This document shows positions 26,176-27,990 of a stretch of DNA of 64,000 nucleotides, piece by piece. A model generated the notes under the pieces. That model saw only the letters and a program-made list of their open reading frames with translations. It was not told the DNA's origin and ran no database searches. Origin of the DNA: a virus; the IMG/VR virus record IMGVR_UViG_3300045988_174813. One strand, given 5' to 3'. A program made the position numbers and the translations under genes. Numbering within the stretch: the first letter of the stretch is position 1; every line of letters starts with the position of its first letter.

Positions 26176-26633
26176 CTAAATGTAATTATAATGTATGTCT
26201 ATCGCGCGAGGCGCACAGGGACATCAAAGTAGAGTATATAATTTATAGTGTAATTTTGAGTGTAGTGGGCGCCAAATGGATGACTAAGTGGATTACTAAG
26301 TGAGCTACTAAATTATAAGTGTAATTCTAATGTAAGTTATAAATGTAATTATAAGTGTAAATAAAATGTGGGCGTAGGTAGTACGCGTGGTGAAGTTTAT
26401 AGAGTAATTTATAAATGTAATTATAATGTATGTTATGAATGTGAGTAAAATGAAGGGGCGCGCGAAGTAGGGGGCAAACACCGGTGCCTTGAATGGTAAG
26501 GCGTAGGTTATAGGTTATAGGTTATAAATTATAAGTTATAAGTTATAAATGTAATTTATAAATGTAATTCTAAATGTATGTTGTAAATGTATGTTGTAAA
26601 TGTAAGTAAAATGTGTGTTCTAAATGTAATAAT
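26176..26633 (+). repeat. iteron array, core AAATGTA(A/T)
   Basis: 9 exact AAATGTA plus about 8 A(A/G)TGTA variants in units such as TATAAATGTAATT. Confidence 0.8.
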
Positions 26634-26810
26634 GCCCCAAAAATTTTTCTTTCCGCCCCATATAGGGGGATGCTTCGGAGGCTCTTTGGGGGGTAGGGAT
26701 TGAGGGATATATATCCCAAATTTTTTCCAAAGTCAAATTTTTTTTACACAATAAATTTCTTCCAAAATTTAGATTTTTTATATAAAAAATAGCAAAACGT
26801 ATACTAAAAT

Positions 26811-26839
26811 TTGACAAGTTCAAAAATGTATGGTATAAT
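26811..26839 (+). promoter_or_regulatory. sigmaA-type promoter TTGACA-17-TATAAT with no protein gene downstream
   Basis: Perfect hexamers. Only a 9-codon ORF downstream, then hairpins at 26887-26912 and 27025-27049. Confidence 0.65.
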
Positions 26840-27020
26840 AAAAGGGGAAGGATATGTGTCCCGCGCGAGAAAAAAAATAAAAGTAAAACCTCGGAGTGAT
26901 CCGAGGTTTAAATTTCTCCCATAAAAGGGTGGGGTTTTTCGGTTTTTCTGGCTTTTACAGGCGTTGTCAAATTTTATGTTATGTCAAATTTTTTCTAGAC
27001 AAATAAAAAAATTCCAAAAT

Positions 27021-27053
27021 AAAAATAGCAGAGTAAAATACTCTGCTATTTTC
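27021..27053. terminator. bidirectional terminator
   Basis: ATAGCAGAGTA-AAA-TACTCTGCTAT flanked by A5 and T4. Confidence 0.65.
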
Positions 27054-27071
27054 TATATATAAAGTTGCAAC

Positions 27072-27557
27072 TTACTCTTCAACAATAGGAAGTTGGTTCC
27101 ATTTTTCCAAAAATTCGTGTTCAGGAATCTCTTTAGTAAGTAAGCCCTTGAGTTCATTATAAGTTACATTGCGCGGGCCGTTCTTAGTCTGTACTGTACG
27201 GACTTCTGGCTTTAGAAGAATATCTTCTGTGGTAAGCGGAGGGTCGTGAGGCGTTTCATAGAAATTGAGCTTCCCATCTTCCTCAATTATATACCCACAG
27301 TTTACTAGGTCTGCTGGCGCGCGCCGGGCAGCATCAACTGATAATCCATATACATTTGAAAAATCTCGTGGAGAATAATCTTTCTCATAGTTATTCTGAT
27401 TAGATGCAAGGTATAAGTATAGTTTGAATCCAGAGGGTGTAAGTAACCTCGCGGCAGTAGCTAATGCTTGACAGTCAATAGCAAGGTATTGCTTTTTTTC
27501 TGAGAGCGGATTAGAACGGTGGATAATGATAGTCTTTTGATTTTGATAGTGAGCCAT
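27072..27557 (-). CDS. winged-helix DNA-binding protein, candidate replication initiator / iteron binder
   Basis: AAAAAGGAG RBS. FKLYLYLASN..YSPRDFSNVYGLSVDAARRAPADLVNCGYI resembles initiator-type wHTH. Flanked by iteron arrays. Confidence 0.45.
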   Translation of the reverse strand: MAHYQNQKTIIIHRSNPLSEKKQYLAIDCQALATAARLLTPSGFKLYLYLASNQNNYEKDYSPRDFSNVYGLSVDAARRAPADLVNCGYIIEEDGKLNFYETPHDPPLTTEDILLKPEVRTVQTKNGPRNVTYNELKGLLTKEIPEHEFLEKWNQLPIVEE

Positions 27558-27696
27558 AGTGAGTACTCCTTTTTTGATAAAATAAAATGATAAACTACTG
27601 ATGATAGTGAGCCAGCTTTTGGCGAGCGCGCCTTAGCAAAGCGAGCCAGAAAAAGCTGGCTCATATTTAGCTTTTTGCGCATATTTCTTTATATTA

Positions 27697-27990
27697 CTTA
27701 TGTAAATTTTACATAAGGATGTAGGAAAATTTACATAAGGATGTAGGAAAATTTACATATACTTTGCTTATTTTTCGTTTTTTTATGGTCGCTATGCGCG
27801 GCTCCTATAGCTAAATTTACATAAGGGTTAGGAAAATTTACATATACTTTGGTATACCTTATGTAAGTTTTACATAAGGTTATGGCTAATTTTACATATA
27901 CCTATAGCTAGTTTTGCGTATACCTTATGTAAAATTTGCGTATACCTATAGCTAAATTTACATATACCTTATGTAAATTTTACATATACC
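27697..27990 (-). repeat. iteron array, core TTTACAT (reverse complement of the left array), several as palindromic pairs
   Basis: About 9 TTTACAT plus 3-4 ATGTAAA, e.g. CTTATGTAAATTTTACATAAG and the direct repeat TTTACATAAGGATGTAGGAAAA x2. Confidence 0.8.

Follow-up and report, generated by a model that had tools for sequence, protein, structure and literature searches.

What is the role of a small phage gene that stands alone between two arrays of short repeats, at the place where two blocks of early genes run towards each other? The question is raised by a repeat-rich locus in a 64,000-nucleotide stretch of viral DNA (IMG/VR record IMGVR_UViG_3300045988_174813; "the window" below means this whole stretch), in which an isolated gene encodes a winged helix-turn-helix (wHTH) protein. 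An earlier note, prepared by a model from the letters of the window and a list of its open reading frames (ORFs), had proposed that inverted copies of one iteron flank an initiator gene here, and that the locus is a candidate replication origin. The answer reached in the present computational analysis is a graded one. That the protein binds the array on the right of its gene and thereby regulates its own expression is probable, judging from sequence comparisons; that the locus as a whole is a self-contained, horizontally exchanged and autoregulated cassette of the initiator/origin type is the reading we put forward, tentatively and at rather less than even confidence; and that the cassette serves the window phage as its replication origin may be the case, at a confidence slightly lower again. 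The cassette itself is real, strongly constrained and testable.

The array on the right of the gene is built of half-sites of the form (G/C)(T/C)(A/T)TATGTAAA, whose same-strand members follow one another at intervals of 22, 22, 22, 22, 22, 32, 21, 64, 22 and 22 bp, and Tandem Repeats Finder also returned a period of 22 bp. Iterons are characterized by at least three direct repeats of 17-22 bp in helical phase, an arrangement that the 11 half-sites of the right array display. The core TTTACATA occurs 15 times in the window, for which 4.9 copies are expected and in which 15 were reached in none of 100 shuffles, and 12 of these copies (nine on the + strand and three on the - strand) fall within 27699-27986; the roughly nine TTTACAT cores that the earlier note had counted on this side are thus borne out, whereas their description as the reverse complement of the cores on the left is not. 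Palindromic pairs such as CTTATGTAAATTTTACATAAG, which had also been noticed earlier, are found at four places (27697-27718, 27857-27878, 27922-27942 and 27966-27986), and the array further holds a conserved spacer of 41 bp at 27763-27803. An exact 26-mer of the array was absent from IMG/VR.

The same-lineage contigs retrieved (L007, L009-L012 and L023-L026; L008 is a small-phage contig) allowed the conservation of these elements to be measured, the figures given here coming from six-sequence alignments of L007, L009-L012 and the window. Relative to L009-L012, identity is 89-90.5% over the wHTH coding sequence, in which 44-50 codon changes are synonymous and two non-synonymous, and 70-73% at its third codon positions. 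The right array, including the 41-bp spacer, is 96-99% identical, the leader 94-95%, the region of the two promoters described below 72-78%, the region of boxes upstream of them 68-86%, and the flanking non-coding DNA 72-86%. Because its identity of 96-99% stands against 70-73% at third codon positions, the right array is constrained base by base, far more tightly than neutral DNA.

The left array is made of another motif. Its units, of the type TTATAAATGTAA (for example TTATAAATGTAATT), are 12-13 bp long, with the same periods found by Tandem Repeats Finder. The earlier note had reported at least nine AAATGTA(A/T) cores on the + strand, and nine copies of AAATGTAW indeed lie on that strand within 26178-26629, out of 17 on both strands of the window; under the looser pattern A[AG]TGTA[AT] all 15 units are recovered, every one of them on the + strand. 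The claim that the two arrays are inverted copies of one iteron, on the other hand, had to be given up. ATGTAA is the sole hexamer common to both (eight copies on the + strand and none on the - strand at the left; four on the + strand and nine on the - strand at the right), the right array lacks TACATTT, which is AAATGTA in reverse complement, TTTACAT is absent from both strands of the left array, and none of the 25 best outside hits in a scan of the window with a weight matrix made from the 15 right-array sites fell in the left array. The left array, which lies 0.5-1.4 kb from the right one across the gene, is therefore not a second (inc-type) array of the identical iteron, given that it shares only ATGTAA and has a period of 12-13 bp. 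In the relatives it can be aligned only over its gene-proximal part, 26540-26633 (76-83% identity); elsewhere the TTATAAATGTAA-type unit is retained while copy number and GC-rich spacers differ (51-58% identity), and the left array is fast-evolving.

In the direction of the gene, the elements are ordered as terminators (28451-28385), TGTCAAATTTT boxes, promoter P1, promoter P2, right array (27990-27697), hairpin (27662-27609), ribosome-binding site and ATG, and the wHTH gene forms a single-gene unit with two tandem promoters of the early class, a leader of ~430 nt and its own terminator. P2 is the stretch that adjoins the right array (27991-28045). Both promoters have an extended -10 element and belong to the same class as the other early promoters of the phage, AAAATTTGAA..TGnTATAATATATA; they are very likely real promoters, because their hexamers are invariant among the relatives while the spacers vary. 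As it is sited between P1/P2 and the gene, the right array is a transcribed leader in the position of an operator or roadblock and, judged from this layout, is at least operator or leader DNA, besides being a possible set of iterons. The hairpin that follows it in the leader is invariant in the close relatives, and in the small phage L004, discussed below, its stem GAGCCAG/CTGGCTC has become GAGCACG/CGTGCTC, i.e. two compensatory pairs.

The product of the gene had been described as carrying an initiator-like winged helix, and comparisons with sequence profiles agree with this. In an AlphaFold model with a mean predicted local distance difference test score of 77, helices occupy residues 29-38, 41-51, 63-70 and 74-86, and the wing residues 90-100. 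The window protein matches the PHROG families phrog_270 ('replication initiation protein', E = 2e-5) and phrog_186 ('DnaD-like helicase loader', E = 1e-4), with matches that span only profile positions ~43-104 of 383. Among 70 diverse members of its family, 67 match phrog_270 (best E 1e-11) and 62 match phrog_186; their other PHROG matches are mostly to initiator families (phrog_428, phrog_678, phrog_345 and phrog_8102), with few to transcriptional regulators. Weak matches to the Pfam domain HTH_36 were obtained for nine of ten family members, the window protein itself scoring below the Pfam cut-off (16 against 25 bits); this domain has been reported in plasmid Rep proteins, in proteins of the replication region of Stx phages and in regulators (PMC3832669, PMC8951638). 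Furthermore, residues 43-120 of lambda O, its N-terminal origin-binding domain, align weakly to residues 37-107 (E = 0.056), a library of viral structures gave a RepA-like initiator at E = 3.5e-3, and in longer relatives the PHROG match extends past the wHTH, one of them matching DnaD_N. By its sequence profiles, then, the protein has an N-terminal winged helix of the origin-binding, O-like or DnaD-like type. The family counts at least 1,698 cluster representatives (E <= 0.001), all of them metagenomic and none named.

Homologues with 30-58% identity are encoded by contigs of TAG-recoding temperate siphophages of ~20-25 kb (one of 32.6 kb), several of which carry an integrase. In these small phages the homologue is always the first gene after a non-coding stretch of 0.4-1 kb, between small genes of the lysogeny type and the terminase genes. 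Since no tested neighbour other than the wHTH resembles a replication protein, it is the sole candidate initiator among the genes tested in the small phages. The non-coding stretches upstream hold two to seven short repeats that are specific to the lineage and, in some lineages, spaced by ~22 bp; immediately next to the genes of two more distant homologues, on large viral contigs, are tandem repeats of 35 bp and 21 bp. In unrelated genomic backgrounds, homologues are accompanied by arrays of short repeats, whose period is often 21-22 bp. Between the large phage and the small ones the half-sites differ (TTATGTAAA against TCTATGT), and a cross-lineage k-mer search for a motif common to all upstream regions returned only generic A/T-rich words. 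A parallel at the DNA level is found in L004: over 400 bp that comprise the leader, the gene-proximal sites and the 5' half of the gene, the two phages show 72.6% identity, and the gene-proximal part of the right array is homologous to the upstream region of L004. Because L004 shares the leader and the gene with the window phage but none of its other, neighbouring genes are present in the window, the cassette appears to have been exchanged as a unit, and the most economical candidate for what keeps the array constrained is the adjacent wHTH protein.

Searches of a wider range set limits on where the cassette occurs. Megablast of the locus against deposited phages gave no match, a scan of GTDB genomes gave no relatives, and a scan of IMG/VR gave two distant loci. 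With tblastn, the protein found no homologue in deposited phages, among them the distant relative phAss-1, a 136-kb 'code 15' gut siphophage (PMC10607447), or in 72,556 PLSDB plasmid records; because it is missing from the deposited phages, phAss-1 included, the cassette is not ancestral to the clade.

Several further observations concern the small phages and the family. In-frame TAG codons were seen in several genes of L001, L004, L018 and L019, with no tRNA gene found in the parts retrieved. A promoter cassette of ~55 nt, AAAATTTGAA..GAAAAT..TGnTATAATATATA, recurs along the + strand early block of the window (at 4492, 6597, 11404, 12058, 15675, 19696, 20480 and 21858) and also occurs in small phages (L004 2000-2057; L006 4612-4674) with 75-81% identity. 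That the promoter consensus and TAG recoding are common to both kinds of phage suggests that they infect the same or similar hosts. A TerS (small-terminase) or pac-site reading was rejected, as in several small phages the gene of the large terminase is immediately preceded by another gene, which is small-terminase-like. Finally, a wHTH domain with 39% identity over 105 residues constitutes the C-terminal half of a 217-residue GIY-YIG nuclease (L015 8001-8654, P0177), a fusion of homing-endonuclease-like architecture that is found in contigs of 57-142 kb; because of this fusion the wHTH can be regarded as a portable module that occurs in more than one protein architecture.

These elements suggest the following mechanism. 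Copies of the protein would line up along one face of the helix on adjacent 22-bp units, each palindromic unit taking a dimer and each direct one a monomer or a half-occupied dimer. Such binding would block transcription from P1 and P2, i.e. bring about autoregulation, and it might also build an origin-type nucleoprotein complex near the most AT-rich and easily melted DNA of the window, in the manner of iteron initiators. The left array would then be an auxiliary element, either an unwinding region like the 13-mers or a copy-control ('handcuffing') array, and the + strand promoter on the left of the gene could serve in transcriptional activation or yield an RNA that acts as primer or regulator. 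Use of the cassette as an origin is plausible because the protein has a domain of the initiator type, the array is phased like iterons, the flanking DNA is AT-rich and the promoters are strong, and because of where the homologues lie.

A number of points weigh against an origin. The two arrays are different motifs, and the right one lies downstream of its promoters, not upstream as in F or phage P1. There is no cluster of DnaA boxes in the locus, where the only match has one mismatch and lies inside coding sequence (23 matches in the window against 20 expected). Transcription converges at the locus and cumulative GC skew has a local maximum there, and such a place is not a classical site for an origin; in replicons a skew maximum is more typical of a terminus, though skew here tracks gene orientation. 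As for the protein, it is half as large as RepA, RepE or lambda O, it has no recognizable C-terminal domain for the recruitment of a helicase or its loader, its last 55 residues being without any family match, and a profile comparison with SPP1 G38P showed no similarity. Profile searches and Foldseek against solved structures in the PDB returned generic wHTH regulators only, with nothing at E <= 0.001, and the absence of homologues from deposited phages and plasmids noted above belongs here as well. In the relative L007 (5335-7010), moreover, an in-frame deletion of 41 residues removes most of the wHTH and another of 160 bp removes about seven units of the right array, which suggests that the cassette is dispensable and hints that it is dispensable or decaying in that phage, unless the contig is an assembly artefact.

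Of the other explanations, the one to be taken most seriously, although we consider it unlikely, is that the cassette is purely regulatory: the wHTH protein would repress its own strong promoters by means of a multi-operator roadblock in the leader, without any role in replication, and the arrays may in addition act as a nucleoprotein insulator or timer between the converging early blocks. It is consistent with the position of the array between P1/P2 and the gene, with palindromic units typical of dimeric wHTH repressors, with the GntR, MarR and ArsR regulators as the best solved-structure matches, with the homologue of the small temperate phages opening an early operon beside lysogeny genes, and with the description of HTH_36 as 'conserved in many transcription regulators' (PMC3832669). 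However, 15 phased sites over 294 bp, with a second array of 15 units, go far beyond the needs of autoregulation, the match of 67 of the 70 family members to replication-initiator PHROGs contrasts with the few matches to regulator PHROGs, and the small phages would be left without any replication-like gene among those tested. A form of competition between phages, which we judge very unlikely, would be that the large phage has captured the initiator and sites of co-resident small temperate phages and expanded the array, so that their replication or early-gene factor is titrated or mis-regulated. The gene and leader are indeed common to both (50-58% protein identity, and the DNA identity to L004), as are the promoter consensus and TAG recoding that point to the same hosts; the array is far larger in the big phage (15 sites against two to six), and the cassette is apparently dispensable in L007. 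But because the half-sites differ between the lineages, cross-binding is uncertain.

The two remaining explanations start from the polarity and clustering of the repeats. Polar arrest of forks, as in the RTP-Ter and Tus-Ter systems, would require that the wHTH protein, on arrays of opposite polarity flanking its own gene, stops or coordinates converging forks in a genome of ~130 kb, for which the likelihood is marginally smaller than for competition. RTP, a winged-helix protein of small size, is autoregulated and encoded next to its Ter sites, and the opposed orientation of ATGTAA in the two arrays is what a fork trap would call for, as is the location of the locus exactly at the convergence of the gene blocks and at the local skew maximum. 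The skew, however, follows gene orientation and so provides no independent evidence on origin or terminus, the arrays differ in motif and period, the profile similarity is to initiators, and neither RTP nor Tus appears among the 50 best Foldseek matches or the sequence hits to solved structures; nor would a fork trap make much sense where homologues open the early operon of temperate phages of 20-25 kb. We know of no phage-encoded terminus system. The least probable explanation is a partition centromere, which the earlier note had named as an alternative, with parC- or tubC-like arrays and the wHTH protein as a TubR- or ParR-like adaptor for a plasmid-like carrier state. parC and tubC consist of iterons of 11-12 bp and TubR is a small wHTH protein, and the 12-13-bp units of the left array, clustered and in one orientation throughout, do resemble them. 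A role in partition is nevertheless unlikely because no ParA-, ParM- or TubZ-like NTPase was found beside the gene, among the tested neighbours in the window or beside the tested homologues; several of the small phages with a homologue carry integrases, and none of the 72,556 plasmid records has one.

The features of the locus are collected in Table 1.

Table 1. Predicted and observed features of the locus, with positions in the window, from left to right.
Feature	Position	Strand	Basis or comment
Intrinsic terminator closing the + strand early block	25637-25658	+	9-bp stem, then T run; last + strand ORF ends at 25623
Non-coding, AT-rich stretch (GC 17.5% in 200 bp) that carries an orphan AAAATTTGAA box (25864)	25860-26059		Lowest-GC 200 bp of the window
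Two adjoining GC-rich hairpins, CCCCCT-TGA-GGGGGG and GAACCTC..GAGGTTC enclosing CCGCG/CGCGG	26094-26146		DNA fold z-score -2.8
Left array, 15 units with consensus TT(A/C/G)TAA(A/G)TGTA(A/T), in 4-5 clusters with GC-rich spacers between	26172-26633	+	Motif and repeat scans
Perfect sigma-70-type promoter, TTGACA-17-TATAAT with TG, facing the 3' end of the wHTH gene	26811-26839	+	12/12 consensus matches
Predicted structured RNA of ~100 nt, from the promoter at 26811-26839	26846-26945	+	RNA fold z-score -2.8; terminator 26917-26934
Two orphan AAATTTGACA boxes (-35-like with A-tract), without -10	26965-26991	-	Invariant in relatives
Terminator hairpin of the wHTH gene, AGCAGAGTA..TACTCTGCT, then T run	27029-27050	-	Direct reading of the sequence; 94-100% conserved
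wHTH gene, 161 aa: winged helix at ~29-100, then C-terminal beta-hairpin and two helices	27072-27557	-	ORF, AlphaFold model, PHROG/Pfam
Leader hairpin, 12-bp stem GAGCCAGCTTTT/AAAAGCTGGCTC around a smaller GC-rich stem-loop	27609-27662	-	RNA fold z-score -2.3
Right array, 11 TATGTAAA-type half-sites on -, four on + forming palindromes	27697-27990	-	Repeat and matrix scans
Predicted promoter P2, TTGAAA-17-TATAAT with TG, transcribing across the right array towards the wHTH gene	28009-28037	-	11/12 consensus matches
Predicted promoter P1, TTGATT-17-TATAAT with TG, in tandem with P2	28094-28122	-	Promoter scan and relatives
Three exact and one degenerate orphan AAAATTTGACA boxes, ~50 bp apart, CCAGCTTT repeats between	28150-28378	+	Motif and repeat scans
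Two terminator hairpins closing the - strand early block	28385-28451	-	The TCTAACCTA..TAGGTTAGA palindrome recurs as the first of the two

The window derives from a large tailed phage, whose close relatives assemble to ~130 kb; among the 15 tRNA genes predicted in it is a CTA (amber) suppressor at 2598-2673. The late genes (from ~41 kb onward, 41000-64000) are open throughout only if TAG is read as a sense codon, an example being the 2,352-residue ORF at 53866-60924 with 65 in-frame TAGs, and the early genes, that of the wHTH protein included, have no or few TAGs. A capsid-like protein (47870-48919) is 34% identical to its counterpart in phAss-1. As the earlier note had said, the early blocks converge on the locus, and the gene lies between the arrays: small + strand genes end at 25623, those of the - strand start at 28437, each block being closed by terminators, and the wHTH gene is isolated between them. 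A scan of 25650-28430 with the standard code and with TAG as sense revealed no other substantial ORF; the ORF at 27936-28262 on the + strand is spurious, because indels of 7 and 8 nt break its frame in the relatives.

The description of the region as the most AT-rich and repeat-dense part of the window also proved correct, the part concerned being 25.85-28.3 kb. The lowest-GC stretch of the window lies inside the locus at each scale tested (100, 200, 500 and 2000 bp), at 100-500 bp several more of the ten lowest-GC stretches fall there too, and repeat density is likewise highest. The stretch at 25860-26059 is 90-91% conserved in L009 and L010, and its AAAATTTGAA box lacks a -10 element. A GC-clamped hairpin had been mentioned as well, and GC-rich hairpins were found at 26109-26146 and 27609-27662. 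Both L009 and L010 retain the pair at 26094-26146, a single T-A pair at the stem base being C-G in L010, and its first hairpin resembles a terminator when read on the - strand. No Rfam family reached its gathering score anywhere in the locus, all matches being far below.

Between the left array and the gene, both hexamers of the + strand promoter are conserved in the relatives. The RNA predicted to start from it likewise has no Rfam family at gathering score; it contains a possible ORF of 23 codons (26855-26926, + strand), whose frame appears to be retained through length differences in L009 and L010 and is lost in L007, and a terminator-like hairpin of the - strand (26886-26909) overlaps it. 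The terminator of the wHTH gene was missed by a simple terminator scan. Orphan boxes of the form AAAATTTGAC(A) at 25864, 26731-26740, 26965-26991 and 28150-28378 resemble the -35 element and A-tract of the early promoters, are without a -10 element and are kept in the relatives; those at 28150-28378 are conserved there with one extra copy. All six copies of the exact 10-mer AAATTTGACA in the window lie within 26807-28378, and just one has a -10 element.

Three contigs from independent assemblies, L023, L024 and L025 (67.9, 130.2 and 26.9 kb), end in the locus, at positions equivalent to 26588, 27594 and ~26040 of the window. A physical genome end at the locus is unsupported, as the three stop at three different positions, like assembly breaks; repeats or strain variation in the left array are probably the cause.

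Three further repeat families were noticed in the window. A perfect tandem repeat of 14 bp in 5.9 copies (CAAACCTAAAATTC) lies at 39450-39532, directly upstream of a strong + strand promoter (39529), at the point where the - strand early and + strand late blocks diverge and where cumulative GC skew is nearing a local minimum (~41 kb); this repeat, too, is a candidate site for regulation or for an origin. The sequence CGCGCGARG occurs 13 times against 0.36 expected, with ten copies on the + strand and five within 25726-26467 (example sites are 14678, 15509, 18184, 23821, 25729, 25775, 26203, 26459, 44111 and 48161); several copies are intragenic and readable in frame as CGC GCG AAG, and a role in recognition, Chi-like or otherwise, is possible. 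The palindrome TCTAACCTAAnATAGGTTAGA is present in 22 copies over 28389-39258, in the gaps between the small - strand early genes, with 19 invariant positions among eight aligned copies; in six that were aligned downstream, it is followed by a TTGACA/TTGACT-17-TATAAT-like promoter and a ribosome-binding site. Its role may be that of a cassette combining terminator and promoter, or of an operator at which a global regulator of early genes acts.

If the cassette is an origin, it offers the first handle on the start of replication in large TAG-recoding gut phages, and the same for the abundant temperate gut phages of ~20-25 kb, in which no other replication protein is recognizable among the tested genes; it would also define a minimal family of single-wHTH initiators, of the size given above, and imply that origin-and-initiator modules move between very different phages. 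If it is only regulatory, it is an unusually large and precisely phased operator array, which could serve to model cooperative binding by winged-helix proteins and be built into genetic tools for Clostridia-type hosts. The element looks to be of a familiar type built from an uncharacterised protein family, and no new principle is involved unless the protein acts in a fork trap or in competition between phages.

Comparison with known systems places the locus as follows. Autoregulated repressors of the MarR and GntR type resemble it in their structures, which are the best matches, and in palindromic operators between promoter and gene, but the matches are weak (E >= 0.07, template modelling score <= 0.31), the locus has 15 phased sites against one to three operators in such repressors, and family-level sequence matches favour initiators. 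TubR-tubC and ParR-parC share with it clustered direct repeats of 11-13 bp and a small wHTH protein; a partner NTPase gene was not found here, and a 22-bp array in the leader of the gene itself is unlike them. The resemblance to RTP-Ter and Tus-Ter lies in a gene for a small DNA-binding protein beside groups of sites of opposite polarity, at a convergence and a skew maximum, without specific similarity of sequence or structure and with homologues in a small-phage context that does not fit. Lambda O with ori-lambda, and PHROG families 270, 186, 678 and 428, have an N-terminal wHTH of the same type and repeated sites near the gene, and the gene occupies, in the small temperate phages, the replication-module position of phage replisome organisers. 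Unlike lambda O, the match is limited to the wHTH core of ~60 residues, the loader-recruiting C-terminal part is replaced by a beta-hairpin and two helices of ~55 residues, and the sites are outside the gene, whereas those of lambda are within it; SPP1 G38P does not match at all.

In the phage P1 prophage-plasmid, the order is incC iterons, repA and incA iterons, and in mini-F it is ori2 iterons, repE and incC. Like these, the locus has a small initiator-type gene between two arrays of short repeats with opposite overall orientation, an upstream array with about two helical turns per unit (22 bp here; the RepA iterons of phage P1 are mentioned in PMC7157519), AT-rich DNA in the vicinity, and palindromic versions of the unit suited to autorepression by a dimer. 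It differs from them in having two different motifs with different periods, promoters upstream of the array and not inside or after it, no DnaA boxes, and a protein of 161 residues with one winged helix instead of two, without detectable similarity to RepA or RepE or any plasmid homologue found. While several features of these systems are thus lacking, the architecture is closest in working to the iteron replicons of phage P1 and F, with their order of array, rep gene and array, and to initiators of the lambda O type.

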